Positions 22,777 through 40,850 of a stretch of 64,000 nt of DNA are shown in pieces. The stretch comes from a virus (taxonomy: Duplodnaviria; Heunggongvirae; Uroviricota; Caudoviricetes). The stretch's first letter is position 1, and each line of letters begins with the position of its first letter. The stretch is from the IMG/VR virus record IMGVR_UViG_3300028025_004880, one strand, 5' to 3'. The position numbers and the translations under genes were made by a program. Under the pieces are notes generated by a model. That model ran no database searches. It saw only the letters and a program-made list of their open reading frames with translations, and was not told the origin of the DNA.

Positions 22777-22994
22777 TGCATAAAGTTGAGAATTTTCCTG
22801 ATCTTAAGAAAGACTTGAATACAGGTGGTGTAGTTAACACCAATCTTGATTCTTATGAGAGTTACAAGCTGTATAGAGCTAAACTTTTAGCGGAACAAAG
22901 CGAAAAAGTCGTCATGACAGAAGAGATAAATAACATGAAGAACGATATTAATGATATCAAATCAATGCTTAAAACTTTATTAGGTAAACCATAA
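22776..22994 (+). CDS. small coiled-coil protein (72 aa)
   Basis: ORF coupled to the giant gene by ATAATG. Heptad-like C-terminus EEINNMKNDINDIKSMLKTLL. Possibly a fibre or assembly chaperone; that is speculation. Confidence 0.4.
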   Translation: MHKVENFPDLKKDLNTGGVVNTNLDSYESYKLYRAKLLAEQSEKVVMTEEINNMKNDINDIKSMLKTLLGKP

Positions 22995-23203
22995 TGGCGC
23001 TCCAAACACCTGTTGTAACTGTACCACAAACTGATACCTTTGATCAGTGGCGTGTAAAAACAAACTCTGTCATCACACAGTCGAATCAGACTGTTCAAGA
23101 CGTGGGTGACATCGCAGCTCTCGGTGGTGGACAGTCTAATTTAGTTCAAGCAATAAATGATGGTACAGATTTTTCAATTGCGATAACAATTGCGTTAGGA
23201 TAA
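22994..23203 (+). CDS. hypothetical protein (69 aa)
   Basis: ORF in the track, ATAATG-coupled to the upstream gene. Confidence 0.4.
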   Translation: MALQTPVVTVPQTDTFDQWRVKTNSVITQSNQTVQDVGDIAALGGGQSNLVQAINDGTDFSIAITIALG

Positions 23204-23206
23204 TAC

Positions 23207-23530
23207 ATGGCAAATAATTTTAAAAATGCTTTAGCACGAAACGTAGGGACATCTGCGGTGCAGGTCTATCAAGCACCAGCTACTAAAAAAGCGATTATGA
23301 TCGAACTCGATTTATGTAATACAACACAGGGTGCTGTTACAGCTGATGTGTATATAACATCAGGTGGTAACAATTATTATGTTGTAAAAAACGCACCAGT
23401 TCCAGTTGGTGGTTCGTTACAGGTAATCGCTGGTCAAAAAATCGTTTTATTTAATTTAGATACTATAAGTGTGGTGTCTAGTGCTGGCACATCTTTAGAT
23501 GTTATTGGTTCTATTTTAGAGGACGTTTAA
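23207..23530 (+). CDS. hypothetical structural-module protein (107 aa)
   Basis: ORF in the track, beta-rich composition, TAATG-coupled to the next gene. Confidence 0.45.
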   Translation: MANNFKNALARNVGTSAVQVYQAPATKKAIMIELDLCNTTQGAVTADVYITSGGNNYYVVKNAPVPVGGSLQVIAGQKIVLFNLDTISVVSSAGTSLDVIGSILEDV

Positions 23531-24983: not shown

Positions 24984-25226
24984 ATGGCCATAAGCAAAAT
25001 AAAATCAAACTCACTGCAAGACGATATTCAAATGCAGGGTCAAACCGTAAGACTGCCTGTCGGCGAACAGGCTAACAGACCAGTTGGTGATCCCACTACA
25101 TATCTGAAGGGTCAGTATCGTTTTAACAATACTACAAAGAAAGTTGAACTTCACGATGGTTCGAAGTGGGATTTAGTTCCAACTCAATCATTGACTGTCG
25201 CATTTGGTATAGCATTGGGAGGATAA
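24984..25226 (+). CDS. hypothetical protein (80 aa)
   Basis: ORF preceded by a CTAAATAGTAATAGGAGAT promoter/RBS-like leader. Confidence 0.4.
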   Translation: MAISKIKSNSLQDDIQMQGQTVRLPVGEQANRPVGDPTTYLKGQYRFNNTTKKVELHDGSKWDLVPTQSLTVAFGIALGG

Positions 25227-25874: not shown

Positions 25875-28800
25875 ATGGCAAAAAAGTTAATATACACTGG
25901 ATATACACTGGATACCGTAAATAATACCATTCAAATTCCAGGAAATATCAGACCGAACAGATTGTTGTTGATGACTGATGTGACAAACAATCAGATTATC
26001 TACAACTTCGCAGATCCTACGCTTGGATATGAGTCATTTAACTTTTCGGAGCAACAAGAAGCAACTACTTATGTTCTGACTGCAGACTTGTCAACTCTTG
26101 GTTGTTTGGATGACGACGAAGTTCAAATCTTCATTGAAGAAGATCATGCGAAAATTGGCTTCGAAGAAGCAATGATCGACCCAGTTAATAAACTCCGTGT
26201 TTCAACTCCAGGCAACTTGATCGATACCGACTTTGAGTATGGTCTACAAGGAACTAAGTGGGAAACCTTACAAACTGTTCAAAATATTCCAACAATTTAT
26301 TCTTCTGGCGGTGACGTTCCACTAGAAGGATTGAGATCAATTACTACAACAGCTGCTTCTAAAGTTGTCAAAGTAACTTTAAATCAAGGTACTGATCTTA
26401 AACTTGGCGACCCAATCGTTGTGCTTGGTGTTACACTATCTCTAGCTGAAGGCGCATTCCTAATTACTGGCGTTTCCTCTTCTACAGAATTTTTCTATGA
26501 GATCGACCAAGCAGCATCAAGAACAGAAGTTATTTCTGGTTCTTATACGACAGTTACCCAAGCAAAATTTTTCGAAGGTTCAGCATTACCAATCGATGAA
26601 TCAGATGGTCTAGGTATTGTAACAGACGCTGCAGCTGGCAATTCTCTTCTTACTATTGGTTGCCCAGAAGTTCATGGTTTAAATCCTAGAACTAAAGTTT
26701 ATCTTAGAAATACTATCGGACCAAAATCATTAGTAATAGCAAATGCAACTGCAACTGCTGCAGACGGAAGACCAACTGTCGATATTTCTCCAGCTATCGT
26801 AACTACTGCATCAGTTGATGCCACACTTATAACAAATAGAGGTGGATTTTTAGAGTTCCCAGTTGTTACATGGGATTGGACATCTACATATAATTTGTAT
26901 CTAAGTCCAGGAATAGTCGATGTTGATACAGATCAAATTACTTGGACAGCTCATGGCTTAAGAGATAACTATTGTCTTGTGTTCCAAACACAAACTCGTA
27001 ACCTATCTACAGGTGGCATGGTTGACGGAACAGTCTATTATGTTAAACGAGTTACAGACAACACTTTCCAATTATGTACCGACTACGGAACATTGGCCAG
27101 CGTTGTTAATCTTACTGCGCTAGACATTACACGTGGTCATCCAAGACTAGGATTGGTTTACAAAGTTGAGCAGAAAAACGGCACAGAACGTGCGACTGCA
27201 TTCTTCAATAGAAATAATACAGTAAACACAAATGGTGTAACCAGAAACGAAGCATCGCAAACATACAGCGGAACACAAGTAAACTACTTGGTTGATCTTA
27301 CAACTACATATGGTGTAGGAAATGTCCCTTGGGCACTTACACTTTCACAGGTAAACTTCTCTTCATCTGCAGGCACTTTTGCTGGTTCTGGTGTAAACAT
27401 ATTCTTCGGTGATGGTACACCTACAGGTCGCGTAAATTCTCAACGTGTCGGTGCTGCTGGTGCTGGATCTGGATCAATATTCCCAAATCTTGCCATTAAC
27501 ACTGCAATTTTCCAAGGTAATGGAACATCTTACAATGGTGTTGGAACAACTGCAGGTAGATACTACTTCGGCTATGGATTGAACCCAGATGGTGGTATGA
27601 CAACCAAAGACAAATTCGGTAACCCAACATCTAACTGGTCAGTTCAACAATTTTTCTCTGGTCAGTTCCGTCCTTCCTCATTGAACTTGAATCATTCTGG
27701 TAGCGATTTCGCAACAACTCAATTCGGATTAGGTGGTAATGGTTCTCGACTAATCGCTTTCCAAAGCAGAACACCTGATAGTGCATATACAAATAGTGCA
27801 GATGGTTATTCCTTCTTACCGAACCAACGTCTAAATGGACGCTTTGGTACAGGTGGTCACAAGTACGGTAACGCTGCATCATCGACAAACAATTTTGGTA
27901 TTATTAATACCAACTACACCGATGCAGGTTTATCTGTATTCTCTGGTAACAGTACTCATGTTTACTACATGTTTGCCAATGATATTCCATCTAACTTCCG
28001 TAATAGTATATTCCAAGCAGGGCACGGATACGCCAACAACGATTTGTGTGAAGTTACAGTTACTAACTATACAACAAGCAATAGATTTGAATTTGTTGAC
28101 AGTACTGGTAATAGCATTCCTATTGCTTCATCAACTTTTGCTGCTAGAATTACTGTAGTTACAGAAGATTTGTTTAAACTTCAACCAACTCAAGCACCAA
28201 ATACTGACGATATTTCTAACTATCCTGCAGCCTTTGTTGTTAGTGTTCAGAAAATAAACCCAACATACAACTCAATCTTTGTTGCAAACCACAAAATCAC
28301 ATCAACAAGCGATGCGACGTTTACAACTCAAGGAACAGCGCCATCGCCATTAACAAATAACCAATCACTTCGTGTTGCACGTTTGAATGATAATCGTCTT
28401 ATCTTTAAACAAGCGTCTGGCGCACCAGCGACAGCTGTAACATCAGCCTTTGGTAATACATCTAATGCTGCAACTGACTTTAACATAAACTTCCAAACTC
28501 CACTTGGTCTAGACCCTTCTGTTGCCTCTATTACTAAAGTTGAATATCGTGGCGACTTTAGAAATTCCACAGAATTCGTTGTGTTAAAGTTTTACAACGC
28601 TGATGGAACTACAGTAAATAGCACGTTTAATATTGGTAACGTGGCACCGAAGGCATTTACTTCTGCCTTCCAGACAGCAACAAACTGGACATCTAAAGAC
28701 GTCTCTGCATTGTTAAGAACTGATGGTGGGTTTAAGGGTATTCGTGTTCAGGTTGACCCAACATCTGATGTTAACGCAGCTCCTGCAGGTATGAGTAACT

Positions 28801-31403
28801 GGTGGGAACTACGATTTACTGTTAGCGCATCTTCAGAAGATATCCGCTTAACTACACAGGGTGTTGGTCAACAAACAATTACTTTGGTAAATCAAGTCGG
28901 CGCATATGATGGCGCATATCCAATTCAAAGCGTCCCCGCAGCTGATGGTGGTAAGTCTTTTGTGCTTCAAGCGCCATTCCAAGTTGTGAAGAGAACATAC
29001 AGTATTGTATCGGCAAACGTCGATACAGCCAACGATATTATTACTACCTCTGCAACAGCGGATCATAATCTAATCTTGGGTGAGCAGATTGAATATGATC
29101 GCAATGGCAATACTGCTATTATTGCTGATGAAGCAAGATACGTAATTCCGATTACTGACAAGACTTTCCGTCTAGCAACTTCTGTGCAAGATGCTATTGA
29201 TGGTAACTATGTTCAAATTAATGCGCCATCTGGAACTCACTTCTTTAGATCTGCTAACATTGTTAAAGGTCTTGCGGGTGTTGGTACAGTGGCAGGAACA
29301 GTAAATCAGAAAACTATTACTGGAACATCAACTAAATTCCTAACAGACTTTAAGAAGGGCGATAACCTCTACATGTTTGTTGGTGGTCGTATGCGTAAGT
29401 TTACCGTTGATCTAGTGTTTACTGATACATCTATGTCTATTCTAGAATCTGTTCAGGCTACTACTGCGTCTTCAAAATACTTCTTGAAAACAACAGTAAA
29501 CCTACGTCCTGATGGATATAACTTACACAAGTCCTTCGATGGTGGTGTTGATATTACTGCAGGTACTTCTCCAAATAGTAAGATCGTTCGTCAATCTCGT
29601 AAGTATTTCCGTTACCAATCTGGTAAAGGTATTCAAAACTCTTTCGCGATTAACTTCTCGCCAGCTAAAACACTGGCTAAGTTGACATATAACACAGGAA
29701 CAAACCTTATTACTGCAATTACGCAAGAACCACATAATCTTGCAGTTAATGATAGTATTACAATTCAAGATGCGGTAACAACAACAGGAACTAACTTCTA
29801 TAATGGTCAGTTCCTAATTAATTCAATTATTGATCCGTTTACTTTTACAGTAACAGCTGGTGGTCAAATCCTTCAATCGATTGCTTCTGGATTCCCAGAA
29901 TACTACAGAAATGAATGGCGTGATTCATATATTCGTGCGGGTATGTTTGATGATCAGAACGGATTCTTCTTTGAGTATGATGGTCAAGAAATTTATGTTG
30001 TTCGTCGTTCTTCAACACTACAGCTCTCTGGTGTAGTTGCGGCAACTAAAAACTCTCAAGTTATTGAGGGAACTAATACAAGTTTCCAAGGACAAATAGT
30101 TACAGGCGATTACATCTCTATTCGTGGTTCTTCGTATAAAGTTGTTTCGATCCAATCTGATAGTCGTTTAATTATTCAACCAGCATATCGTGGTGCATCT
30201 TCAACGCAAGTTAAAATCACCAAGATGGTTGATGTTAGAATACCAAGAACTGAGTGGAACCTAGATCGTGCCGATGGACTTGGTCCATCAGGTTATATCT
30301 TCAACCCACATAAGATTCAGATGTGTTACGCTGACTATTCATGGTATGGTGCTGGTAAAATTCGTTTCGGATTTAAAGATCGTTATGGACACGTGTTCTA
30401 CTTCCATGAATTTATCCACAACAACAGATTGAACGAATCATACTTCCGCTCAGGTAACTTACCTGGACGTTATGAGATCGACAATGGTGATGATCCTACA
30501 TCTTCACCTACACTATTCCACTTCGGTACTTCTGTTATTATGGATGGTTTGTTCTCTGATGACGGAGCATATAAATTCTCTGCTATCTCTAAGCCATACG
30601 TATTCGCCAACGGAGTAACAGGAACAGTTACAACAAATGCAGTATCGGTCTTTGAGCAAATTACACTACGTGGTAAACGTGTATATGTGTACACTCTTGG
30701 TGTGAGCGCTGCCGATGCTGGTAAAGTTACACAGGGTCAGTTGATCCGTGATGCTTCAGGTGTGTTACCTACTGCTACCTACATTACGCAGGTTAAAGTG
30801 CTTGGCGCTGCATCGAAAATTTATACAAACTATCCAGCCACTGCCGTTGTTCCAGATATTGGAACATATGTGGACGTAGCTTCAGGAATTGTTTGTACTT
30901 TCGGTGAGATATCCGCAACTGACTTGACAAGACCACAGCCAATTATATCGATTCGACTAGCCCCATCTGTTGATTCTTCATTAGTTGGATTCTTAGGTGA
31001 GCGTGAAATTATTAATAGAATGCAGGTTATTCTTGATTCTGTTTCTATCACTACATCGAAAGAAATTGACTTGTTCCTAGTATTGAATGGTCAACCTTCT
31101 AATCTTGTGTTTACGAATGTGGGAACTCCTTCGTTGTCACAGTTTATTGATCACAATACTGGCGACTCTGTTGCTGGTGGTGTTACTCTATATGTGGGTA
31201 AAGTCAGTGGTAATACAACATCTTCCTTCGAACTAAAAGGATTAGTTGACTTGGGTAACTCTATTTTGGGCGGTGATGGTATTTTCCCTTCTGGTCCAGA
31301 TTTGTTAACATTATTGTGTCAACCTACAAATACTACGACCATTACTTCTTCTTCGCCGTTTATTGTATCAGGAAAACTTTCTTGGTCTGAGTCACAAGCA
31401 TAA
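25875..31403 (+). CDS. giant virion structural protein 2 (1842 aa)
   Basis: Uninterrupted ORF with Thr/Ser/Gly/Asn-rich beta-type composition. N-terminus YTLDTVNNTIQIPGNIRPNRLLLMTDVTNNQIIYNF loosely follows the same gp17-N-like pattern. AAGGAAATGAAAGCATGG RBS. Confidence 0.6.
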   Translation: MAKKLIYTGYTLDTVNNTIQIPGNIRPNRLLLMTDVTNNQIIYNFADPTLGYESFNFSEQQEATTYVLTADLSTLGCLDDDEVQIFIEEDHAKIGFEEAMIDPVNKLRVSTPGNLIDTDFEYGLQGTKWETLQTVQNIPTIYSSGGDVPLEGLRSITTTAASKVVKVTLNQGTDLKLGDPIVVLGVTLSLAEGAFLITGVSSSTEFFYEIDQAASRTEVISGSYTTVTQAKFFEGSALPIDESDGLGIVTDAAAGNSLLTIGCPEVHGLNPRTKVYLRNTIGPKSLVIANATATAADGRPTVDISPAIVTTASVDATLITNRGGFLEFPVVTWDWTSTYNLYLSPGIVDVDTDQITWTAHGLRDNYCLVFQTQTRNLSTGGMVDGTVYYVKRVTDNTFQLCTDYGTLASVVNLTALDITRGHPRLGLVYKVEQKNGTERATAFFNRNNTVNTNGVTRNEASQTYSGTQVNYLVDLTTTYGVGNVPWALTLSQVNFSSSAGTFAGSGVNIFFGDGTPTGRVNSQRVGAAGAGSGSIFPNLAINTAIFQGNGTSYNGVGTTAGRYYFGYGLNPDGGMTTKDKFGNPTSNWSVQQFFSGQFRPSSLNLNHSGSDFATTQFGLGGNGSRLIAFQSRTPDSAYTNSADGYSFLPNQRLNGRFGTGGHKYGNAASSTNNFGIINTNYTDAGLSVFSGNSTHVYYMFANDIPSNFRNSIFQAGHGYANNDLCEVTVTNYTTSNRFEFVDSTGNSIPIASSTFAARITVVTEDLFKLQPTQAPNTDDISNYPAAFVVSVQKINPTYNSIFVANHKITSTSDATFTTQGTAPSPLTNNQSLRVARLNDNRLIFKQASGAPATAVTSAFGNTSNAATDFNINFQTPLGLDPSVASITKVEYRGDFRNSTEFVVLKFYNADGTTVNSTFNIGNVAPKAFTSAFQTATNWTSKDVSALLRTDGGFKGIRVQVDPTSDVNAAPAGMSNWWELRFTVSASSEDIRLTTQGVGQQTITLVNQVGAYDGAYPIQSVPAADGGKSFVLQAPFQVVKRTYSIVSANVDTANDIITTSATADHNLILGEQIEYDRNGNTAIIADEARYVIPITDKTFRLATSVQDAIDGNYVQINAPSGTHFFRSANIVKGLAGVGTVAGTVNQKTITGTSTKFLTDFKKGDNLYMFVGGRMRKFTVDLVFTDTSMSILESVQATTASSKYFLKTTVNLRPDGYNLHKSFDGGVDITAGTSPNSKIVRQSRKYFRYQSGKGIQNSFAINFSPAKTLAKLTYNTGTNLITAITQEPHNLAVNDSITIQDAVTTTGTNFYNGQFLINSIIDPFTFTVTAGGQILQSIASGFPEYYRNEWRDSYIRAGMFDDQNGFFFEYDGQEIYVVRRSSTLQLSGVVAATKNSQVIEGTNTSFQGQIVTGDYISIRGSSYKVVSIQSDSRLIIQPAYRGASSTQVKITKMVDVRIPRTEWNLDRADGLGPSGYIFNPHKIQMCYADYSWYGAGKIRFGFKDRYGHVFYFHEFIHNNRLNESYFRSGNLPGRYEIDNGDDPTSSPTLFHFGTSVIMDGLFSDDGAYKFSAISKPYVFANGVTGTVTTNAVSVFEQITLRGKRVYVYTLGVSAADAGKVTQGQLIRDASGVLPTATYITQVKVLGAASKIYTNYPATAVVPDIGTYVDVASGIVCTFGEISATDLTRPQPIISIRLAPSVDSSLVGFLGEREIINRMQVILDSVSITTSKEIDLFLVLNGQPSNLVFTNVGTPSLSQFIDHNTGDSVAGGVTLYVGKVSGNTTSSFELKGLVDLGNSILGGDGIFPSGPDLLTLLCQPTNTTTITSSSPFIVSGKLSWSESQA

Positions 31404-31415
31404 GGAGCCTCAAAG

Positions 31416-31946
31416 ATGGCATACATCGGAAGAGATCCTCTCTATGGATTATTTGAGAAACAGGTGGTTTCTGCCAATGGCAGTACCACTTTGTTTACCT
31501 TAGATTTTTTAGTAGGATCTGCATCCTCTATCCTAGTAGTTGACGATGGCGCAGTAGTGCAGCCTGGAGTTGGGTATACTATTGTTGATGGTGGAACAAA
31601 GATACAGTTTGCATCTGCTCCAGCTGGAGTAGTATATCTAATCTATCTTGGCAAACAACTATTAGTTCCATCTTACGACAAAACAATTCTCGCACAAGAT
31701 TTGAGTGGGAATATAACTTTAACTACATCTGATATCAGAGACATAATTTCCGTAAATCCTCTCGTTTCTAATAGGACAATTTTTATACCTGTTGCAGCAG
31801 ATGCTGTTGGATACCAGACTACTATAAGAAATAGATCTTCATCACTGTCAGTTGTCATAAATGCAGGATCAACTGTTGCTACGGTTTCTCCAAATAGTTC
31901 AGTTACTATTGCCTCTGATGGTATAGGTTGGTTTATCGTTCTTTAA
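31416..31946 (+). CDS. small structural protein with a T7 gp17-like N-terminal tail-attachment domain (MAYIG paralogue 2)
   Basis: MAYIGRDPLYGLFEKQVVSANGSTTLFTLDFLVGSASSILVVDDGAVVQPGVGYTIVDGGTKIQF aligns position-by-position to T7 gp17 YQLDGSNRDFNIPFEYLARKFVVVTLIGVDRKVLTINTDYRFATRTTISL. GGAG RBS. Confidence 0.5.
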   Translation: MAYIGRDPLYGLFEKQVVSANGSTTLFTLDFLVGSASSILVVDDGAVVQPGVGYTIVDGGTKIQFASAPAGVVYLIYLGKQLLVPSYDKTILAQDLSGNITLTTSDIRDIISVNPLVSNRTIFIPVAADAVGYQTTIRNRSSSLSVVINAGSTVATVSPNSSVTIASDGIGWFIVL

Positions 31947-31947
31947 C

Positions 31948-31972
31948 AAAGAGACTCGAAAGGGTCTTTTTT
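31948..31972 (+). terminator. rho-independent terminator
   Basis: AAAGAGACTC-GAAA-GGGTCTTTTTT. Stem of about 6-9 bp including G·U pairs, GNRA tetraloop, then a T6 run right after the MAYIG-2 stop. Confidence 0.6.
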
Positions 31973-31992: not shown

Positions 31993-32000
31993 TATAAATA
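31993..32000 (+). promoter_or_regulatory. T4-type late promoter box TATAAATA
   Basis: Exact TATAAATA lies 27 nt upstream of the GTG start at 32027, following a terminator. Confidence 0.5.
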
Positions 32001-32026: not shown

Positions 32027-32356
32027 GTGGCAACAATAACTAATTTATTCATCGACCAAGGTTCTGATTATAGTTCAATTATTACATTGACTAATCAGGA
32101 TGGCACTGTCATTAATTTGACAGGATACACGGTAGCATCACAGTTTAGAAAATCTGCTACATCATCTACCTCAATTGCGTTTACTGCAACAGTACACAAT
32201 GCAGCAACTGGACAAATAAAATTAGAACTATCGGCAGCAGCATCAACAGCTATTGCTGCTGGTAGATATGTGTATGATATCGAAATAACACTAGGTACAG
32301 CAAAAAGAAGAGTGCTGGAAGGTTTGGTTGTTCTATCCCCTGAAGTAACGAGATAA
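32027..32356 (+). CDS. hypothetical protein (109 aa), GTG start, first gene of the fibre operon
   Basis: ORF begins at GTG after an AGAGTATGGGG RBS. The upstream ATG at 32015 terminates after 2 codons. Confidence 0.45.
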   Translation: MATITNLFIDQGSDYSSIITLTNQDGTVINLTGYTVASQFRKSATSSTSIAFTATVHNAATGQIKLELSAAASTAIAAGRYVYDIEITLGTAKRRVLEGLVVLSPEVTR

Positions 32357-32359
32357 AAC

Positions 32360-32611
32360 ATGACTGATATAGTAGCAGTATTAAACAATCCCAATATTGT
32401 TGTGTCGGTAGATTCTACTGGCAATAATCCAACAGTTCAATCTATTGGAATACAAGGACCAGCAGCATCAGATTCACCGCTGAGTGCCAATATTGAGGTT
32501 GATGCAACAGGAAAAACAGAAGGATCTTTGTTGGTCTACAAAACAGCTACATCAAAGTGGACAGCAACAACAACATTAAACGCCCAAAATTTAGAAGGCG
32601 GTAATTATTAA
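32360..32611 (+). CDS. hypothetical protein (83 aa)
   Basis: ORF in the track, 3 nt after the upstream stop. Confidence 0.45.
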   Translation: MTDIVAVLNNPNIVVSVDSTGNNPTVQSIGIQGPAASDSPLSANIEVDATGKTEGSLLVYKTATSKWTATTTLNAQNLEGGNY

Positions 32612-32629
32612 CAATCGAAGGAAATAGAG

Positions 32630-35365
32630 ATGGCATCAATTATTCGCATAAAAAGATCTACAACTGCTGGAGATCCTACCACACTTGGTAATGGAGAACT
32701 AGCATATTCAGCAGCAGATTCTTCCGTTGTCTCTGGTGGCGACCGACTTTACGTTGGTATCGGTAATGAGATCTCGGGTAATGCTGCGACGCACATTGTT
32801 GTTGGTGGTAAATATTTTACCGATATGCTGGATCATGCGAAGGGGGTTCTAACCGCATCTTCTGCAATTATTACTGATTCTAACAGTAAGATCGACAACT
32901 TAAAAGTTGACAATATTGATTTAAATGGAAACACTATTAGTATAACAGATACTAATGGTAATTTAGTACTTGCTGCCAATGGTACTGGTTTTGTTGATGT
33001 TTCTACTGGTGTTGTTAAGATTGCTTCCACAACAGCAGCAACAACCACTACTTCAGGTGCTTTACAAGTAGCTGGTGGTGCTGGTATCGGTGGCGCATTG
33101 CATGTTGGTGGTCTAATTAATGCTCAGTCTGCCACATTCACAAACATTAATAATACTCCAATTGGTAACTCAACACCAAGTACTGGTGCGTTTACCACAT
33201 TATCTGCTTCTAGCACACTGGATGTAACAGGCGCAGCTACTTTCAATGGCGCAGTAAATATTGGTGCTAGCACTATTCAAGAGTATATCTATGATACAGT
33301 TGGTGGTGCAGTTACTGGTGGTACTGGTATTACTATTACCAACTCTGATGTTGGAAATACCTCAACAGTTTCTCTTTCTAATCAAATTACTGCTGCAGGA
33401 CCAGTTGGTTCTTCAACATCAATTCCAGTTATAACTTTTAATGCTCAGGGTCAATTAACTGCAGTAACAACAGCATCAATTAGTACCACTCTTGGTATTG
33501 CTGGTGATACTGGTACAGATTCTATTGCTCTTGCTACCGATACGCTGACATTTACTGGTGGTGAAGGCATTGACACTTCTGTAAATTCCGCAACAAATAC
33601 AATTACTATTGCAGCAGAAGATGCTTCTACAACCAACAAGGGTGTTGCTTCTTTTGAAACAAACGATTTTAACGTAACTGCTGGTGCAGTTGAGTTAAAA
33701 GACACAGTAATCAAAGGTTTAACTGTCGATTCTTCTGCTGCAGTAACCCCAAGTGGTCATGCGATTGCTATTGTTGGTGGTGAAGGTGTTGATGTTACAG
33801 CATCTGGTGCAACTATTACTGTTGCGGGTGAAGATGCTTCTGATACAAACAAGGGTATTGCTTCTTTCGCAACATCTGGATTTAATGTTGCTGCTGGTGT
33901 TGTTACTTTATCCGACACAGTTGTAAAAGCTGTTACAACAGACAGTGGCGCAATGAGTATGGCTGGGAATGCTATTAGCATTCTTGGTGGTGAAGGTATT
34001 GATGTCACACATGCTGGGACATCAATTACAGTAACTGGAGAATATGCAAGTGGTGCCAATGCTGGTATTGCTTCTTTCTCTGCAACTCATTTTGACGTAT
34101 CAAACGTAGGTGATGTTACCATTAAAAATGGTGGTGTTGCCAACGCTAAACTTGTAAACAGTGCAGTAACTATTGGTTCTACATCTGTTTCTCTTGGTGC
34201 GACACAAACCTCATTGGCAGGTCTTACTGCAGTTACTGTTGATAATATTAATATCGATGGAAACACAATTTCATCTACAAATGTTAATGGCAACATTATT
34301 CTTGATCCAAATGGAACAGGTGTTATCGATGCTTCTGCAACTCGCATTACTAATCTTGCCGAACCATCTGCCGATTCAGATGCTGCTACAAAATATTACG
34401 TTGATGCTGCTCGTTCTGGTCTTGATGTTAAAAATTCAGTTAAAGCAGCTACAACTGCAAATATTACACTAAGCAATACACAAACTATTGATGGTGTTGC
34501 TCTTTCTGTTGGCGATCGTGTTCTTGTTAAAGATCAAACAACCGCATCTCAAAATGGTATCTATGTTGTTGCTTCCAGTTCTTGGACTCGCGCAACAGAT
34601 GCTGATGCTCCTGCTGAATTAAATCCAGGAACTTTCGTTTTCGTTGAACAAGGTACTGTCAACGATAACACTGGTTTTGTTGTAGTTTCTGATAGTGTTG
34701 TAACTATTGGCACTGATGACATCAACTGGACATTATTCTCTGCTTCTGGCACACTAATTGCTGGTAATGGTTTATCTAAAAACGGATATACGCTAGAAGT
34801 TAATGTCGCAGGATCTGGTGGTATTGAGTTATCATCTGATGCTTTACAACTAAAATCCACAATAGCAGGTACTGGTTTAGATTATGCTTCTGGTGTTCTT
34901 TCTCTTGAAACAACATTAGCTGGTGCTGGTTTAACATATACTGCTGGTGTAATCGACCTTAATGTCGCTACGAATGGTGGCTTAGAATTAGACGGATCAG
35001 ATAATCTACAACTAAAATCGACTGTTGCTGGTACTGGTTTAACACTAACATCTGGTGTTCTAAATGTTATTGGAACTGCAGATAGAATCACTGCCAATGC
35101 AGATAGTATTGATATTGCGTCAACATATGTTGGTCAAAACACTATTACTACTCTTGGCACTATTACTACTGGCACTTGGCAAGGTAGCGTAATTACAGCA
35201 CTATATGGTGGTACTGGTCACTCTAGTTACAGCACTGGCGATTTGTTGGTTGCTTCTGGCGCATCTACATTAAGTAAACTAACAGTTGGCACTAGTGGAA
35301 AAATTCTACAATCTAATGGTTCAACATTAGTTTATGGTGACATTGATGGTGGAACATACGCTTAA
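32630..35365 (+). CDS. tail fibre protein (911 aa) with a conserved fibre N-terminal motif and internal repeats
   Basis: N-terminus MASIIRIKRSTTAGDPTTLGNGELAYSAADSSV is the I/V-x-R(R/K)-GT...G-E-L...D fibre-attachment motif. Repeated segments recur, such as GEGIDTSVNSATNTITIAAEDASTTNKGVASFETNDFNVTAGAV / GEGVDVTASGATITVAGEDASDTNKGIASFATSGFNVAAGVV and STIAGTGLDYASGVLSL / STVAGTGLTLTSGVLNV. Confidence 0.65.
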   Translation: MASIIRIKRSTTAGDPTTLGNGELAYSAADSSVVSGGDRLYVGIGNEISGNAATHIVVGGKYFTDMLDHAKGVLTASSAIITDSNSKIDNLKVDNIDLNGNTISITDTNGNLVLAANGTGFVDVSTGVVKIASTTAATTTTSGALQVAGGAGIGGALHVGGLINAQSATFTNINNTPIGNSTPSTGAFTTLSASSTLDVTGAATFNGAVNIGASTIQEYIYDTVGGAVTGGTGITITNSDVGNTSTVSLSNQITAAGPVGSSTSIPVITFNAQGQLTAVTTASISTTLGIAGDTGTDSIALATDTLTFTGGEGIDTSVNSATNTITIAAEDASTTNKGVASFETNDFNVTAGAVELKDTVIKGLTVDSSAAVTPSGHAIAIVGGEGVDVTASGATITVAGEDASDTNKGIASFATSGFNVAAGVVTLSDTVVKAVTTDSGAMSMAGNAISILGGEGIDVTHAGTSITVTGEYASGANAGIASFSATHFDVSNVGDVTIKNGGVANAKLVNSAVTIGSTSVSLGATQTSLAGLTAVTVDNINIDGNTISSTNVNGNIILDPNGTGVIDASATRITNLAEPSADSDAATKYYVDAARSGLDVKNSVKAATTANITLSNTQTIDGVALSVGDRVLVKDQTTASQNGIYVVASSSWTRATDADAPAELNPGTFVFVEQGTVNDNTGFVVVSDSVVTIGTDDINWTLFSASGTLIAGNGLSKNGYTLEVNVAGSGGIELSSDALQLKSTIAGTGLDYASGVLSLETTLAGAGLTYTAGVIDLNVATNGGLELDGSDNLQLKSTVAGTGLTLTSGVLNVIGTADRITANADSIDIASTYVGQNTITTLGTITTGTWQGSVITALYGGTGHSSYSTGDLLVASGASTLSKLTVGTSGKILQSNGSTLVYGDIDGGTYA

Positions 35366-36111
35366 TGGCAAATGTAATTAAATTAAAGCGATCTGAAGTT
35401 GCCAATGCAGTGCCATTGGCAGCAGACCTTGCGGTCGGAGAAGTCGCATTTAATTCAGCCGATAAAAAAATATATTCGAAAGATAGTGTTGGGAATGTTG
35501 TCTTAATTGCGACTGCCAGCGATACTCTTCAAAATATTACTAGTCGTGGGGCTTCGTCATCAAACGCTATTACTTTAAGTAATACTACTGCGTCATCATC
35601 AACTACTACTGGTGCACTAAAAGTTGCAGGTGGTGTTGGTGTTGCGGGAAAATTGAGTGCGGGTTCAGTAAGTGTAAATAACGCATATACTTTACCAACA
35701 TCAGACGGAACTGTAAACCAAGTTATCGCAACAGATGGTGCAGGCAATTTAACCTTTATCCCCAATGGATCTGGTTTTGCTTCCATAACTTCTCCGAGTC
35801 AAACTACATTATCTGCAATAACATCATCTTCTTTAGATTTTGTTGGTGGTTCAGGTATTTCTATTACTCTGGACTCTATACTAAATAAGATAACGATTAC
35901 TAATACTGGTCTTGATGCTGGATCATATGCTTCAGAAACATATGTAGAAGATGTAGTTAACACCGAAGTGTTTCCAACTGGAGACTATGGTGACTTTACT
36001 GCTTTCTCCGCAACACAAGATGCTTTCGGTATTGACATAACATCCGCCAAAGATTACGACTTAGCAGGATATCCAGGATATCTTAGATCTGTAAACTTTG
36101 GTACATTATAA
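35365..36111 (+). CDS. tail fibre paralogue (248 aa), same N-terminal motif
   Basis: MANVIKLKRSEVANAVPLAADLAVGEVAFNSADKKIY shares the K/RRS...GE(L/V) N-terminal motif with the 32630 and 36126 ORFs. TAATG-coupled to the upstream fibre gene. Confidence 0.55.
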   Translation: MANVIKLKRSEVANAVPLAADLAVGEVAFNSADKKIYSKDSVGNVVLIATASDTLQNITSRGASSSNAITLSNTTASSSTTTGALKVAGGVGVAGKLSAGSVSVNNAYTLPTSDGTVNQVIATDGAGNLTFIPNGSGFASITSPSQTTLSAITSSSLDFVGGSGISITLDSILNKITITNTGLDAGSYASETYVEDVVNTEVFPTGDYGDFTAFSATQDAFGIDITSAKDYDLAGYPGYLRSVNFGTL

Positions 36112-36125
36112 AAGTGGAGATATAA

Positions 36126-37742
36126 ATGCCAACAGTTGTGCAATTTAGACGTGGTACTACTACACAAAACAATGCCTTCACTGGTGCGGTGGGCGAACTT
36201 AGTATTGACACACAATTAGATACTATTCGTGTTCATGATGGTAGCACTGCAGGTGGTTTCGAGTTGGTACAGAAAGCTGCTACTCAAACTCTAACAAACA
36301 AAACAATCAATTTAACAAGCAACACTTTAACAGCAACTCTTGCTCAATTAAACACAGCTATTTCAGACGCAGATGTTTCTACTATCGATGGAACAGAAAC
36401 ATTAACAAATAAAACATTGGCAAGTCCAGTTGTTACTACGCAGCTAACATCTAGTAGCGCATCGTTCGCTTTACTTGATACACCAACTACAATAAACTTT
36501 GGTGCTGCAGCAACCACATTCAATATTGGAAATACCAATGCTGCTGTAGCGAACACAGTAAACCTAGCAACTGCTGCTACGAACACTGGGTTAACGAAAA
36601 CAGTAAATCTCGGTACTGGTGGCGCATCAGGTTCTACCACAAATATTAACATTGGTTCTGCCAGTGGTGGTACTACTACAGTAAATAAAGATTTAGTTGT
36701 TTCTGGTGACTTAACAGTAAACGGAACAACGACAACAATTAATTCCACAACTCTTTCAGTTGACGATAAGAATATTGTTCTTGGTGATATCGCATCGCCA
36801 ACAGATATTACGGCAGATGGTGGTGGTATTACATTAAAAGGCGCAACTGATAAGACCTTTAACTATGTAAACGCAACAGGATTGTGGACAGCAAACATTG
36901 GTATTGAAGCAACTTCTTTCAAAGGTTCTGCGAATTTATCTGGTGGAACAATTGCTAATATTACAGGATTGGGATTTAATGCTGGAGTTTCTGTTGCTGA
37001 ATTTAGTGCCGATGGAACATTAGCTGGAAACGCTGATGATGCAATCCCAACAGAGAAAGCAGTTAAGACCTACGTAGATGGTCAGAATTCAGTAACGCAA
37101 ACTCTTACAAATAAAACTATTGCTTTTGGTAGCAACACAGTAAGTGGAACATTGGCTCAGTTTAATACTGCTGTAACCGATGCTGACCTTGCTTCTCTAG
37201 CAGGATCTGAAACTCTAACAAATAAAACTATTAGTGGTACAAACAACACTCTATCTAATATTGGCAACTCTTCTCTAACAAACAGTAGCATTAGCATCAA
37301 TGGATCTGCTATTTCATTGGGTGGTTCAGTTACTGGTCTTGCAGTTACCTCAGGTAAACTATCACAATTTGCTGCCACAACATCATCAGAATTGCTTGGT
37401 GTTATCTCTGATGAAACAGGTTCTGGCGCATTAGTGTTTGGTACAAGTCCAACAATAACCACTGCAACACTAAGTGGTAACACAAATATTACTGGTCACC
37501 TTTTACCAACTGCATCTATTACTTACGACTTGGGTAGCGCAACAAACAGATTCCGCGACTTATATCTAGCAGGCACAACTATCTACTTGGGTACAACTAA
37601 AATTATGCTTGATGCTGATGGTAATATGATAACCAACAAGAACTCTGCAGGAGGATATCCTGCTGGAAGCAATACTGCAATGGCAACTAAAGCAGGTGCT
37701 GCATTTGCAGGTATACCTTTCGCCATTGCGCTTGGAGGTTAA
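36126..37742 (+). CDS. tail fibre paralogue (538 aa), same N-terminal motif
   Basis: MPTVVQFRRGTTTQNNAFTGAVGELSIDTQLDTIRVHDGSTAGG is the classic QFRRGT...GEL..DTD...R.GDG fibre N-terminus. Repeated (T)LTNKT(I/L) segments throughout. Confidence 0.6.
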   Translation: MPTVVQFRRGTTTQNNAFTGAVGELSIDTQLDTIRVHDGSTAGGFELVQKAATQTLTNKTINLTSNTLTATLAQLNTAISDADVSTIDGTETLTNKTLASPVVTTQLTSSSASFALLDTPTTINFGAAATTFNIGNTNAAVANTVNLATAATNTGLTKTVNLGTGGASGSTTNINIGSASGGTTTVNKDLVVSGDLTVNGTTTTINSTTLSVDDKNIVLGDIASPTDITADGGGITLKGATDKTFNYVNATGLWTANIGIEATSFKGSANLSGGTIANITGLGFNAGVSVAEFSADGTLAGNADDAIPTEKAVKTYVDGQNSVTQTLTNKTIAFGSNTVSGTLAQFNTAVTDADLASLAGSETLTNKTISGTNNTLSNIGNSSLTNSSISINGSAISLGGSVTGLAVTSGKLSQFAATTSSELLGVISDETGSGALVFGTSPTITTATLSGNTNITGHLLPTASITYDLGSATNRFRDLYLAGTTIYLGTTKIMLDADGNMITNKNSAGGYPAGSNTAMATKAGAAFAGIPFAIALGG

Positions 37743-37743
37743 T

Positions 37744-38484
37744 ATGGCAGTCGACAGTAGAGAAAAATTAAAAAAATATTGCCTAAGAGAATTGGGCGAT
37801 CCAGTTGTAGAGATTAATGTTGACGATGATCAACTAGAAGATCGCTTAGACGAAGCCATAGAATATTGGAGACAATATCACTACGATGGTACTGAAAAAA
37901 TTTATTTGAAACACCTAGTAACTGAAACTGATGTAACTAATCGATACATTCCAATCAATGATTTGGTTTATGGTGTGACACGTGTTTTCCCTACTATAAG
38001 CAGCACGTCATCATCTAAATCTATTTTTGATTTACAATATCAATTAAGATTAAATGATTTGTATGATTTAACATCAACATCAATTATCTACTACAAAACT
38101 GTAATGAATCATTTAGCGTTGCTTGACAATGTTCTAAATGGATCTGTCTTATACAGATTTAACCGATTACAAGATAGACTCTACATTGACTTAGATTGGG
38201 GTACTGAAGTAAAGGCTGGTCAATATTTACTTGTTGAGGCATATCGTGTATTAGACCCAGCGCAATTCCCAAAAATGTTTGGCGAACAATGGCTGAAGCA
38301 TTATACAACAGCTCTGTTTAAAAAACAGTGGGCTACTAATTTGAAAAAGTTTAATGGTCTACAACTTCCTGGCGGTGTTACCGTAGATGGCGATGGTCTC
38401 TATAAAGAGGCGATTGATGAAATGCGTGAGTTAGAAGATAATCTAAAAAATAAATCAGCGCCTCTCGAATTTTTTATGGGATAA
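37744..38484 (+). CDS. gp13: neck protein, gp13-like (inferred by synteny)
   Basis: 246 aa. ATG at 37744 directly after the fibre stop (TAATATGG); the track ORF from 37696 overlaps the fibre. Two genes upstream of a well-supported gp15. Confidence 0.5.
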   Translation: MAVDSREKLKKYCLRELGDPVVEINVDDDQLEDRLDEAIEYWRQYHYDGTEKIYLKHLVTETDVTNRYIPINDLVYGVTRVFPTISSTSSSKSIFDLQYQLRLNDLYDLTSTSIIYYKTVMNHLALLDNVLNGSVLYRFNRLQDRLYIDLDWGTEVKAGQYLLVEAYRVLDPAQFPKMFGEQWLKHYTTALFKKQWATNLKKFNGLQLPGGVTVDGDGLYKEAIDEMRELEDNLKNKSAPLEFFMG

Positions 38485-38487
38485 CTT

Positions 38488-39144
38488 ATGGCTAGAAATG
38501 TATATTTTAGCCACGGAACTCGAAATGAACAGCTTCTAATAGAAGATCTGATCATTGAGTCATTGGCCATTTATGGGCAAGATATGTTTTATCTTCCAAG
38601 AACACTCATAGCAAAAGATGAAATTTTGGGTGAGGATCGTTTAAGTAAATTCAAATCCTCATATCCAATCGAAATGTATTTCGAAAACGTAGATAATTTT
38701 GATGGGCAGGGACAGTTTATACAAAAGTTTGGTTTGATGAACGAGCAGTCTGCAACCCTAACAGTTGCCAGACGTAGATGGGAACAATTAATTGGCCAAT
38801 TCGGCCAAACCATAATTCCATCAAGACCTTGTGAGGGCGATCTTTTATATTTCCCTCTGACTAAAGGATTGTTTGAAATTAAGTTTGTTCAACATCAAGA
38901 CCCGTTCTATCAACTTGGAAAGTTGTATGTGTATAAATTACAAGTTGAGCTCTTCCAATATGGTTCAGAGAAGATCGATACAGGAATCGCTTCTATCGAT
39001 GTGTTTGAAACACTCAAGACATATGATACATCAATAAATAATGATGTTCAGAAATCTACATCGTTCGGCGATAACACTAGATTTAAAACTGAAGCAACCA
39101 CTGTTCTGTTTGATAAAAATAATCCGTTTGGGGATGTAAATTAA
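38488..39144 (+). CDS. gp14: neck protein, gp14-like (inferred by synteny)
   Basis: 218 aa ORF between the gp13-like gene and gp15, overlapping gp15 by TAATG. Confidence 0.5.
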   Translation: MARNVYFSHGTRNEQLLIEDLIIESLAIYGQDMFYLPRTLIAKDEILGEDRLSKFKSSYPIEMYFENVDNFDGQGQFIQKFGLMNEQSATLTVARRRWEQLIGQFGQTIIPSRPCEGDLLYFPLTKGLFEIKFVQHQDPFYQLGKLYVYKLQVELFQYGSEKIDTGIASIDVFETLKTYDTSINNDVQKSTSFGDNTRFKTEATTVLFDKNNPFGDVN

Positions 39145-39896
39145 TGTTAGCTGGTCAAGTTTTCTATCACGGAATTATCAGAAAAACTATTGTTGCGTTT
39201 GGTAGTTTGTTCAGCAACATCCAGATTCAAAGAAGATCTAAAGACGGAGCAAATACACTGCTCCAAACTGTTAAAGTTCCAGTTGCGTATGCGCCAAAGG
39301 AAAAATGGATAGTTCGTATTGAACAAGACCCGAATCTAGAAAACAATACATATACCGTATTACCTAGAATGTCGTTTGAGGTAACAAGTATCTCATATGA
39401 CCCATCTAGAAAATTGAACAGAATGAATAAGCTGGTCCAGTATAAAGCGCCAGTGGGCGCTGGACAACCATCATATACAGCAATGTATACACCAGTTCCA
39501 TATAATATAGATATATCGTTATACATCCTGACGAAGACGCAAGAAGATGCTATGCAAATAGTTGAGCAGATTCTTCCATATTTTACACCAGAGTTTACTC
39601 TGTCGCTAAATACTATTCCAGGAATGAATGTTGCTAACGATATTCCAGTTATATTGAATTCAGTTTCAGTGCAAGATGATTATGATGGCGATTTTCAAAC
39701 AAGAAGATTTGTAACATATACGCTTACATTCAATTTGAAAGTCAATTTATATGGACCGACTTCTAATGGTACACCAATTAAATCAGTATTGGTTGATACT
39801 ACAGTGATTAAAGATGGTCCAACAGTCGCAGACTATACGGCTACACAAACAACTCCACCTTCGGTTATTACTGAAACGTGGAACGAAGAATTTTAA
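39144..39896 (+). CDS. gp15: tail sheath stabiliser / tail terminator gp15
   Basis: SLFSNIQIQRRSK...VKVPVAYAPKEKW aligns to T4 gp15 (DLFSNIQIKRQLES...IRVPITYASKEHF). QIVEQILPYFTPEFT aligns to QIVEQILPYFQPHFN. Confidence 0.85.
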   Translation: MLAGQVFYHGIIRKTIVAFGSLFSNIQIQRRSKDGANTLLQTVKVPVAYAPKEKWIVRIEQDPNLENNTYTVLPRMSFEVTSISYDPSRKLNRMNKLVQYKAPVGAGQPSYTAMYTPVPYNIDISLYILTKTQEDAMQIVEQILPYFTPEFTLSLNTIPGMNVANDIPVILNSVSVQDDYDGDFQTRRFVTYTLTFNLKVNLYGPTSNGTPIKSVLVDTTVIKDGPTVADYTATQTTPPSVITETWNEEF

Positions 39897-39908: not shown

Positions 39909-40850
39909 ATGGCAAAACAATTGATCAATGTAGGTACTACGCCAAACGATGGAACAGGCGATACTCTTCGCGATGCTGGTATTAAGGTTAATAACACACT
40001 AACAGAGTTGTATGATGCTTTGGGTACAACCGCAGGTGCGACAACACTAAAGATTACTACTGCTGGTGCATCAAATGGTGATGCTTTAAGGTGGAATGGT
40101 ACTACATTTGCGCCAGCTGCAGTTGTAGCTGACACTAATACAACATATGTTATTTCATCAGAAACAGCAACTGGTGGTGCAAATCTACGCTTAACTGGTT
40201 CAGATTCATCAACAGATAACGTGAAGATTGCTTCAGGAACTAACATGTCAGTGGTTAGAACTGATGCTAATACCATTACACTAAACTCTACTGATACTAA
40301 TACTACATACAACTTAACAACTGAGCAATTATTCGCTGGGCAAATAACTCTAAGACTGAATTCAGCGAATCCATCAGGAACTAATGACATCGCAATTATT
40401 CAAGGTGATGGCATTTCATTAACATCATCATTAAACAGCAACCTTCAGATTACTAATTCTGGTGTTAGATCTGTTAATGGTCAAACAGGTGCTATCTTTA
40501 TGCAGCCTGCAATTACCTTTAGTTTTGGTGGTTCTGGTACAACAAACTACACAGTTACAGGTCCTGGCTTAGCAGCTGCAGGAGAAGCAGATCCAACACT
40601 ATTCGTCTATCGTGGTTTTACATATCGCTTTACAACTACTATCGCTTCACAAATTTTAGAAATTTTAGATTCAAGTAACGTGGCACCAGCTGCAGCATTT
40701 ATTTCTTCAACTGGCGCAACAAGAAACGAAGCTGACCAAAACGAAACTGTTACATTTACTATACCAATGAGCGCAACACCAGGAAACACATTTAAATACA
40801 GAAGTAAATCAAACCCTGCTACAATGTTAGGAACTATTACTGTTGTCTAA
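39909..40850 (+). CDS. fibre/baseplate-type beta-rich protein (313 aa) with an N-terminal NDGTGD motif, occupying the slot where T4 has the small terminase gene
   Basis: N-terminus INVGTTPNDGTGDTLRDAGIKVNNTLTELYDALG is a motif I recognise from N-termini of phage fibre-type proteins. The rest is Thr/Gly/Asn/Ala-rich. It is not TerS-like (not small, helical or basic). Confidence 0.5.
   Translation: MAKQLINVGTTPNDGTGDTLRDAGIKVNNTLTELYDALGTTAGATTLKITTAGASNGDALRWNGTTFAPAAVVADTNTTYVISSETATGGANLRLTGSDSSTDNVKIASGTNMSVVRTDANTITLNSTDTNTTYNLTTEQLFAGQITLRLNSANPSGTNDIAIIQGDGISLTSSLNSNLQITNSGVRSVNGQTGAIFMQPAITFSFGGSGTTNYTVTGPGLAAAGEADPTLFVYRGFTYRFTTTIASQILEILDSSNVAPAAAFISSTGATRNEADQNETVTFTIPMSATPGNTFKYRSKSNPATMLGTITVV

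Follow-up and report, generated by a model that had tools for sequence, protein, structure and literature searches.

In phage T4, gp36 binds the N-terminal region of gp37 (PMC3004832). In phage T5, the L-shaped tail fibres are anchored by the immunoglobulin-like (Ig-like) collar protein p132, and collar density left unmodelled by cryo-EM is, according to the authors of that study, most probably that of ~50 N-terminal residues of the fibre protein pb1 (PMC10038345). For pelagi- and cyanomyophages, Zaragoza-Solas et al. (2020; PMC7029224) describe a hypervariable region between VrlC and the neck genes, the host recognition cluster (HRC), in which Mtd domains were noted and whose mean size is 44.6 kb in pelagimyophages. 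Here we analyse a fibre gene cassette found in a 64,000-nucleotide (nt) stretch of tailed phage DNA (IMG/VR record IMGVR_UViG_3300028025_004880), hereafter called the window. The cassette consists of two small open reading frames, ORF A and ORF B, and three fibre genes, F1, F2 and F3, encoding 911, 248 and 538 amino acids (aa), and lies behind a terminator-like hairpin and a TATAAATA box (Table 1). An original prediction made from the nucleotide sequence alone had described this arrangement with correct coordinates and lengths, and had read it as three paralogous fibres sharing an N-terminal attachment motif. We find that each fibre protein begins with a docking head, and that the product of each gene located immediately upstream ends in a short C-terminal tail. 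The products of ORF B, F1, F2 and F3 may thus be segments of one and the same fibre, for which ORF A would provide the anchor.

The N-Terminal Head Module

The motif [IV]-x-[ILF]-[KR]-R-[SG]...G-E-[LV] opens F1, F2 and F3. Searched as a regular expression in the six frames of the window, it was found at these three N-termini only, apart from a dubious match at position 63540 that was rejected, its ORF running off the window without fibre features. The original prediction had recognized the motif at the same three N-termini, in a register lacking one hydrophobic residue ([ILF]). Hidden Markov models (HMMs) of the heads were built from the first 48 aa of the metagenomic homologues of each fibre protein. 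The F1 and F2 heads are each other's best non-self match among the 345 ORFs of the window (E 8.5e-6 and 5e-5), and hhalign relates F1 to F2 at 96.9% (E 1.5e-10) and F2 to F3 at 81% (E 1.2e-5), the direct match between F1 and F3 being weak (10%, E 3e-3). All three pairs score above 150 of 150 column-shuffled controls, contrary to the refuting outcome named with the original prediction, a similarity not exceeding the Thr/Gly-rich background. Given these reciprocal HMM, hhalign and shuffling results, the heads share a real similarity, which is both graded and transitive. Only the first ~30-45 residues take part in it, the remainder of F1, F2 and F3 being unrelated, and BLASTP among the three proteins returned one weak F1/F2 match and nothing else. 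The term paralogues therefore fits the head module alone.

Each head has recognizable relatives. The F3 head is a member of the Pfam family Mtd_N (PF18454), with 34.3 bits against a cut-off of 26.3 over residues 5-41 (profile positions 1-37 of 37). F3 aligns with residues 1-59 of Mtd in PDB entry 1yu1 (E 1e-9), and with other Mtd chains too, and its residues 1-59 are 73% identical to gp064 of Pelagibacter phage HTVC008M. F1 and F2 gave no match to Pfam Mtd_N even at E <= 10. The F2 head corresponds to the N-terminus of T4 gp37 (phrog_1699, E 4.9e-8): its residues 5-62 are 41-43% identical to T-even gp37 N-termini in tblastn, and its HMM matches the gp37 N-termini of T4, CC31, KpV477, phi1_146055 and Acinetobacter phage Berthold with E-values from 8e-18 to 2e-8. 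The F1 head, of the KRS type, is a sister of the F2 head. Heads are never internal among 2,425 proteins and ORFs, and the Rosetta-stone idea, that is, an internal head following a tail within one protein, was dropped as no such protein was found.

The head is best read as a small beta-rich domain of ~45 residues belonging to a gp37-N/Mtd_N group. The AlphaFold2 (AF2) model of F2 shows, over residues 4-60, a small beta domain with four strands and a helix. Some matches of the F3 family start MQQRRGTAAQW...GEIG.E.DT.KFKIGDG, a beginning that we take to be HylP-like; Foldseek comparison with the HylP structures 2c3f and 2dp5 was insignificant (E > 2). Taken as a whole, the N-terminal motif is a genuine and widespread fibre docking module.

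The C-Terminal Tail Motif

The tail motif reads hydrophobic-[DEN]-[FGL]-G-x-[YFL](A)-COOH. Among the 343 ORFs of 50 aa or more in the six frames of the window, it closes ORF B, F1, F2 and one spurious 53-aa ORF only, and the three genuine tail-bearing genes are exactly those in front of the three head genes. A joint was defined as an upstream product ending in hydrophobic-[DEN]-[FGLY]-G-x-[YFILV](A)-COOH followed by a downstream gene starting with a head, and all three junctions of the cassette have this form. The ending of F2, NFGTL, fits the motif most loosely, and it is kept in all close F2 homologues. Relatives of ORF B and F1 likewise share the same endings, whatever precedes them.

The distribution of the tail was quantified in related loci. 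A strict pattern, [DEN]GGx[YFI](A)-COOH, occurs in 39 of 2,138 locus ORFs against ~0.9 expected, and nearly all of these are of the ORF B or F1 type. With a wider pattern, [DENS][FLGA]Gx[YFILV](A)-COOH, the tail is present in 21 of 37 distinct genes lying just upstream of head genes as compared with 7 of 837 others, counts that are not phylogenetically independent; three of the seven others are F1-type genes parted from F2 by a small inserted gene. Among F1-type proteins, 117 of 120 carry the tail (an xDGG[TS][YF](A) ending), and among F3-type proteins none of 120 does.

Tails precede heads in distant phages as well. The gp36 proteins of Straboviridae end in DFGYY (T4), DFGTY (CC31, KpV477 and phi1_146055) or DYGTF (Acinetobacter phage Berthold), and Bbp9 of Bordetella phage BPP-1, encoded just upstream of Mtd, ends in ...DLGGIA. 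In Prochlorococcus phage P-HM2, the Ig-like protein 090 is followed by 091 (...NGGSF), by 092, which combines a head with a ...DGGTF ending, and by 094, which has a head. Ralstonia phage PY059YO380, of 40.6 kb, encodes in succession (L097, 1442-4580) a 112-aa protein, perhaps Ig-like, an 89-aa protein ending in ...DGGNF, a 466-aa protein with a head and a ...DGGTF ending, and a 226-aa protein with an F2-type head and no tail, after which comes a likely assembly protein. As a prospective test, protein P0137 was picked solely for having a head and a DGGSY tail; on its contig (L096), the upstream gene ends in INGGSF, and the downstream gene, of 769 aa, bears a head of the F2 type (E 8.5e-23) and lacks a tail. 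Phages of very different kinds can carry the cassette.

Two further observations concern C-terminal endings. The gp14-like neck proteins of two loci (L032, position 10747; L051, position 5647) end in the tail motif (...PFSEGGTY), which is absent from the gp14 of the window; head-bearing fibres could dock at the neck in those phages. A different ending, xAIALG(G), closes F3 (...PFAIALGG, 37719-37739), two small proteins of the window, of 80 aa (24984-25226, ...AFGIALGG) and 69 aa (22994-23203, ...AITIALG), and the last fibre segment in other loci (L008-L011, L045, L050, L070 and L082). It was found in 14 of 2,138 ORFs against ~2 expected, and may mark terminal (distal) segments.

ORF A, a Candidate Fibre Anchor

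ORF A matches phrog_3304, annotated as 'L-shaped tail fiber protein assembly' (E 2.3e-24). In the RefSeq record of T5 (NC_005859; L089), an apparent frameshift at 11056-11480 splits the p132 gene into T5.135 and T5.136, and the 140-aa protein was rebuilt from the two frames. The ORF A family aligns with the rebuilt p132 over 105 columns (hhalign 96.8%, E 2e-10). Comparison of ORF A with PDB chain 8hqz_Q gave an E-value of 0.065. Its single-sequence model is Ig-like, with a moderate mean confidence (pLDDT 64.5), and retrieves generic Ig-like folds with phage baseplate Ig domains on top, all at E > 1e-3. Conservation of ORF A extends to 114 records of cyano- and pelagimyophages, the gene leads the fibre genes in every related locus, and the p132 gene of T5 directly precedes ltf. 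Because of its homology to p132, the role of p132 in T5, this gene order and the Ig-like model, ORF A is a candidate structural fibre anchor rather than a chaperone. Elsewhere, the ORF A domain was seen fused to the N-terminus of a 1,100-aa protein (L025, 6665) and duplicated in a 316-aa protein (L017, 3230).

A Proposed Segmented Fibre and Its Alternatives

Because the tails sit exactly on the genes that precede the heads, as at the gp36/gp37 junction of T4, we favour, with a probability of roughly 0.55, a reading in which a single segmented fibre, with ORF A as its anchor, is built head to tail from ORF B, F1, F2 and F3. Each head would dock on the tail found at the very C-terminus of the trimer that the gene before it encodes, and gene order would reflect physical order. 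ORF B would act as a starter segment offering its tail to the F1 head, F1 and F2 would each bring a head and then a tail, and F3, with its Mtd_N head and no tail, would form the distal end. The product would be one long fibre with chains of ~1,780 residues, an analogue of T4 gp34-35-36-37, and ORF A, as the p132 homologue, would likely anchor it at the end next to the virion. Exchange of bodies and distal segments, the joints being kept, would then be the way in which host range evolves.

Several observations weigh against such a fibre. The ends of adjacent genes are linked on the DNA and could be co-inherited without any interaction of their products, and the statistics given above share ancestry. 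Tails are absent from several proteins encoded directly before Mtd_N genes, namely the L006-type F2 proteins (...RVTDRVIVS) and, in ~14 loci, relatives (...NLFWSEAQA) of the 1,842-aa structural protein encoded upstream of the cassette (p1842); HTVC008M gp062 has no tail either. Besides its loose ending, F2 shows only weak similarity over its last ~45 aa to the 'DAFG...DFGSVA' C-modules that precede Mtd_N genes (hhalign 54%, HMM E 0.06-0.1); the profile of these C-modules did not detect T4 gp36. The ORF B/F1 and F1/F2 joints are near-identical, which leaves unexplained how order is enforced and self-polymerization avoided. Finally, the AF2 model of F2 is confident for residues 4-60 alone, and a Foldseek search of the PDB with this model found nothing below E 0.2.

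The original prediction saw in F1, F2 and F3 independent fibres, or alternative tips, docked in parallel on a common adaptor. On this view the adaptor could be, for instance, an ORF A collar or a baseplate protein, and the phage would have several receptor specificities. Its fibre-type proteins and its docking module stand, and the first position of a p132-like anchor in the operon, the head module common to all three proteins, the extra tandem Mtd_N genes (230-253 aa) of locus L005 and the many Mtd_N genes that follow proteins without a tail motif all agree with it. We nevertheless regard parallel docking as rather unlikely, for the heads form three distinct classes in fixed slots across ~40 loci instead of one interchangeable class, the tails sit on the upstream products, and T4 gp37 and BPP-1 Mtd, the two relatives of the module that have been characterized experimentally, bind the distal end of another fibre protein, encoded just upstream, and not a baseplate adaptor. 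The conserved extreme C-terminus of F1 (117/120) and of ORF B-type proteins would also be odd for a free receptor-binding tip. A mixed or branched arrangement appears improbable to much the same degree. In that case ORF B, F1 and F2 would make one gp36/gp37-like jointed fibre, and F3 would sit elsewhere, for example on p1842 or on a side branch as in phages with multiple receptor-binding proteins (RBPs). The pairing of a GGx[YF] tail with a KRS head is indeed the best supported, the NFGTL tail of F2 is atypical and its C-module similarity weak, in L008-L011 and L045 an F2-type protein closes the chain and F3 is missing, and an Mtd_N gene directly follows a p1842-like gene in ~14 related loci. 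However, the gene before Mtd_N ends in [DN][FL]G[GS][IV]A or DFGYI in BPP-1, HTVC008M and seven other loci, an 84-aa F2-type protein of L005 (...VDGGTIA) directly precedes an Mtd_N gene, and F3 starts 15 nt after an F2 whose NFGTL ending is shared by all its close homologues.

Much less probable is the idea that the products include appendages of the neck or head, functional analogues of the wac whiskers or of decoration fibres. The genes abut gp13-gp15 in one unit, residues 606-760 of F1 match PDB entry 9nx3 and PHROGs label the domain 'head decoration', and gp14-like proteins with a tail motif exist in L032 and L051. On the other hand, no similarity to fibritin was found in Pfam or PHROGs, the closest cultured homologues (Melnitz and Mosig) bear a tail fibre annotation, the globular domain of F1 is mobile and found in tail fibres too, and the gp14 of the window has no tail motif. 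That the N-terminal resemblance would be a compositional accident of Thr/Gly/Ala-rich fibres is refuted for the F1-F2 and F2-F3 pairs, and we give it next to no weight overall. The failure of F1 and F2 to reach Pfam Mtd_N and the 10% of the F1-F3 alignment would suit an accident, whereas the reciprocal HMM matches, the hhalign values of 97% and 81%, the 0 of 150 shuffled controls reaching the observed scores, the confinement of the motif to three N-termini in six frames and the gp37 matches of the F2 head profile, with E down to 8e-18, do not.

A broader proposal, for which we would offer slightly less than even odds, is that head and tail make up a portable, sequence-readable joint that concatenates separately encoded trimers in T4, BPP-1, cyano- and pelagimyophages and the Ralstonia phage, and that would here join four products into one fibre with a p132-like anchor. 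If the joint is portable, the architecture of a fibre, with its starter, middle and terminal segments, could be read from gene order and termini. If the pairing of tails and heads is real, multi-gene fibres from metagenomes could be assembled on paper, including their members, their order and their receptor-binding end. Host-range predictions would be sharpened, and engineers would be shown where segments can be swapped without breaking assembly.

Bodies of the Fibre Proteins

F1, F2 and F3 are, judging from their homologues, all fibre-type structural proteins: PHROG, Pfam and PDB matches are structural only, as the original prediction had expected for the three of them. Searches of the PDB by sequence found nothing for F2 or ORF B, and none of the seven proteins tested matched NCBIfam. 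Internal repeats were sought with a diagonal-score scan, BLASTP self-comparison being blind to them as offset high-scoring segment pairs (HSPs) are culled. Different repeats had been proposed for the three bodies, which holds for F1, with a 71-aa unit present three times at residues 321-530 and 18/54-aa units at 731-810, and for F3, with its TLTNKT units; F2 contains no internal repeat beating shuffled sequences in the same scan. A search for tandem repeats at the DNA level found none in the fibre genes.

In F1, the KRS-type head (aa 1-~45) is followed by a conserved 120-aa N-region. Conservation was assessed by MAFFT column identity, the BLAST coverage profile being uninformative since repeats let HSPs span everything. 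In F1 and its 119 best homologues, conservation runs from end to end, with the extreme C-terminus included and indels of repeat copies excepted; F1 is therefore not a protein that merely varies beyond its motif. Among cultured phages, its closest homologues, from Methylophilales phage Melnitz (49.6% over residues 1-743) and from Mosig, carry a tail fibre annotation. F1 also contains a globular domain at residues ~566-750 (window positions 34325-34880); the match of residues 606-760 to 9nx3, a 'capsid decoration protein', has an E-value of 3.9e-13. Relatives of this domain occur in proteins of actinobacteriophages, cyanophages and Xanthomonas/Ralstonia phages that are annotated as head decoration, tail fibre or hyaluronidase. 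The domain is a mobile module with inconsistent annotation.

ORF B is always located between ORF A and F1 in related loci, and its C-terminal unit is repeated in a 461-aa protein of L096. In HTVC008M gp062 (L001, 8975-12037), an ORF B-like N-terminus is fused to a TLTNKT-repeat body. The start of ORF B, MTDIV, is identical to that of wac; this identity was set aside, the stretch being too short to be meaningful and relatives not sharing it.

Two more fibre-like proteins of the window, of 476 aa (23530-24960) and 176 aa (31416-31946), start with MAYIG.... Proteins of 79-94 aa that start with MAYIGN and end in ...DFGSVA or ...VDFGYI directly precede Mtd_N fibres in seven loci (L043, L052, L053, L067, L069, L072 and L083). 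The MAYIG start looks like another type of N-terminal anchor, and the window therefore probably encodes more than one fibre system.

Related Loci and Local Diversity

One layout recurs in HTVC008M, Mosig and P-HM2, in five contigs from metagenomes and in ~40 IMG/VR loci that were retrieved by way of gp13: ORF A and ORF B come first, followed by genes of the F1 and F2 types, an interval of 0-3 kb, an F3-type gene and gp13. Across ~40 related loci, the three head classes are specific to their slots, and lengths vary widely within each slot (F1 313-1083 aa, F2 84-1044 aa, F3 178-1566 aa). Compared with L004, the closest full-length relative, identity is 64% for ORF A, 66% for ORF B, 89% for F1, 88% for F2 and 85% for F3, against 93-99% in the flanks and 94-98% in the heads, and the divergence falls in mosaic patches. 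The cassette is a local diversity hot spot relative to L004. The earlier picture of a diversification locus, variable distal to the motif, agrees with this hot spot and with the conserved heads, and is too simple for F1, in which conservation spans the entire protein.

ORF A and ORF B (32027-32611 against L004 7433-7982) are the most divergent genes of that comparison, which suggests a cassette replacement at the supposed anchor end. In L005, three tandem Mtd_N-headed paralogues of 230, 239 and 253 aa (4826-7027) lie upstream of ORF A and have Gly-rich C-termini ending in ...VEEIYGYV or ...EEFYGFV. These three look more like parallel alternative fibres than does the cassette of the window.

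Gene Structure and Setting of the Cassette

The hairpin, AAAGAGACTC-GAAA-GGGTCTTTTT followed by a T-run, is the sole intergenic terminator-like site on the + strand between 25 and 45 kb, and closes an upstream unit comprising the 1842-aa and 176-aa structural genes. The TATAAATA box is a putative promoter, by its likeness to the T4 late-promoter consensus; the window shows no enrichment of the octamer (4 observed against 5.8 expected). All cassette junctions are tight: the start codon of F2 overlaps the stop codon of F1 (TAATG), and the F2-F3 gap is 15 nt. The unit had been thought to end at 37742. Beyond this position, packed genes without any intergenic terminator on the + strand continue through gp13, gp14, gp15 and a gp9/10_N-like gene to TerL, and the best reading is that the cassette is transcribed late from the TATAAATA box together with the neck genes. 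The 313-aa gp9/10_N-like protein, which matches Pfam PF07880 with 26.7 bits (cut-off 25) and phrog_677 with E 1e-39, is by its context a candidate baseplate socket for fibres.

Table 1. Features of the cassette and of its surroundings in the 64-kb window
Feature	Position	Strand	Remarks
gp5-like hub	5826-9008		first of the T4-type structural module of the window
gp6, gp7-like gene, gp8			after the gp5-like hub, before the VrlC-type gene
VrlC/DUF4815-type protein	16057-22776		2,239 aa
Structural protein p1842	25875-31403		1,842 aa; among small and large structural ORFs before the cassette
Terminator-like hairpin	31948-31971	+	followed by a T-run
TATAAATA box	31993-32000	+	T4-type late-promoter-like; 27 nt before the start of ORF A
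ORF A	32027-32356	+	109 aa; GTG start
ORF B	32360-32611	+	83 aa; ends ...NLEGGNY
F1	32630-35365	+	911 aa; ends ...DIDGGTYA
F2	35365-36111	+	248 aa; ends ...SVNFGTL
F3	36126-37742	+	538 aa; ends ...PFAIALGG
gp13, gp14, gp15	37744-39896	+	neck/tail-completion genes; same late unit, no terminator between
gp9/10_N-like protein	39909-40850	+	313 aa; T4 gp9/gp10 N-terminal domain (PF07880, phrog_677)
TerL, tail sheath			3' of the gp9/10_N-like gene

The G+C content of the window is ~38%. In 50,697 phage records, megablast found no match to the region, and no close cultured relative is therefore at hand; blastn against phage records gave short, module-level matches and nothing longer. The nearest cultured phages are the Pelagibacter phages HTVC008M and Mosig and Methylophilales phage Melnitz, with 65-76% nt identity in conserved genes. 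In metagenomes, identical or near-identical copies were found on contigs of ~160 kb, and F1 has at least 4,974 homologous proteins at E <= 1e-5. Given these copies and homologues, the window belongs to an uncultured, abundant marine T4-like myophage. The cassette is placed between the baseplate-wedge/VrlC genes and gp13, and the corresponding place in T4 is occupied by genes 9-12 and wac.

Comparison with Known Systems

The likeness to T4 gp36-gp37 is threefold: the F2 head is the gp37 N-terminal module, gp36 ends in the same kind of tail, and the genes are adjacent and in physical order. Differences are also evident. No similarity of F2 to the body or tip of gp37 was found, and since the tblastn and PHROG matches stop at ~residue 62-137 and there is no PDB match, F2 is not a gp37 orthologue. 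No equivalents of gp35, gp38 or gp57 were identified in the window. The T4 fibre genes lie far from gene 13, those of the window in the gene 9-12/wac position, and the window has three or four joints as compared with a single one of the gp36/gp37 type in T4. The wac/gp12 position assigned by the original prediction is accurate as a map position, the homology being to the gp36/gp37 joint and not to wac or gp12; neither fibritin (wac) nor gp12 families appear among the Pfam, PHROG and NCBIfam matches of the cassette.

With BPP-1, the likeness resides in the alignment of F3 1-59 with Mtd 1-59, in the position of Mtd at the ends of the BPP-1 tail fibres and in the tail of Bbp9. F3 differs from Mtd in having neither a C-type-lectin variable domain nor an associated diversity-generating retroelement; it is a repeat-rich protein of 538 aa, and BPP-1 is a small podovirus-like temperate phage. 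With T5, homology between the ORF A family and p132 spans the entire Ig-like domain, and in both T5 and the window a gene of the anchor family stands immediately upstream of the fibre gene or genes. T5 is a siphovirus, whose p132 collar is dodecameric and surrounds the p140 ring. T5 pb1, the known ligand of p132, is not known to have a KRS/Mtd_N head, a further point against parallel docking.

The locus as a whole is of a kind already known, namely a fibre/host recognition cluster with conserved N-terminal docking modules, to which the window adds a member. As in the HRC, tail fibres are encoded between a VrlC-like gene and gp13, with the layout of HTVC008M, Mosig and P-HM2; the order ORF A, ORF B and fibres is that of HTVC008M gp061-064, Mosig 00070-00066 and P-HM2 090-094; and identity drops locally relative to the flanks in the window too. 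The version carried by the window is compact, ~15 kb as compared with an average of 44.6 kb in pelagimyophages. Among its ORFs, the smaller of which were read and not profile-searched, we recognized neither glycosyltransferases nor any other auxiliary metabolic gene. The passages of PMC7029224 that were consulted hold no description of the head classes, the tail motif or the link to p132.

The cassette also resembles modular RBPs, such as the Klebsiella and Acinetobacter tailspikes and the tailspike proteins of CBA120, in combining a conserved N-terminal docking module with exchangeable distal parts, and the locus is mosaic relative to close relatives. Those systems are branched and parallel, with dedicated adaptor domains, whereas the evidence from the window favours a linear chain. 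The locus is in itself ordinary; its interest lies in the link to p132 and in a tail/head grammar that would span T4, BPP-1, marine myophages and a Ralstonia phage.

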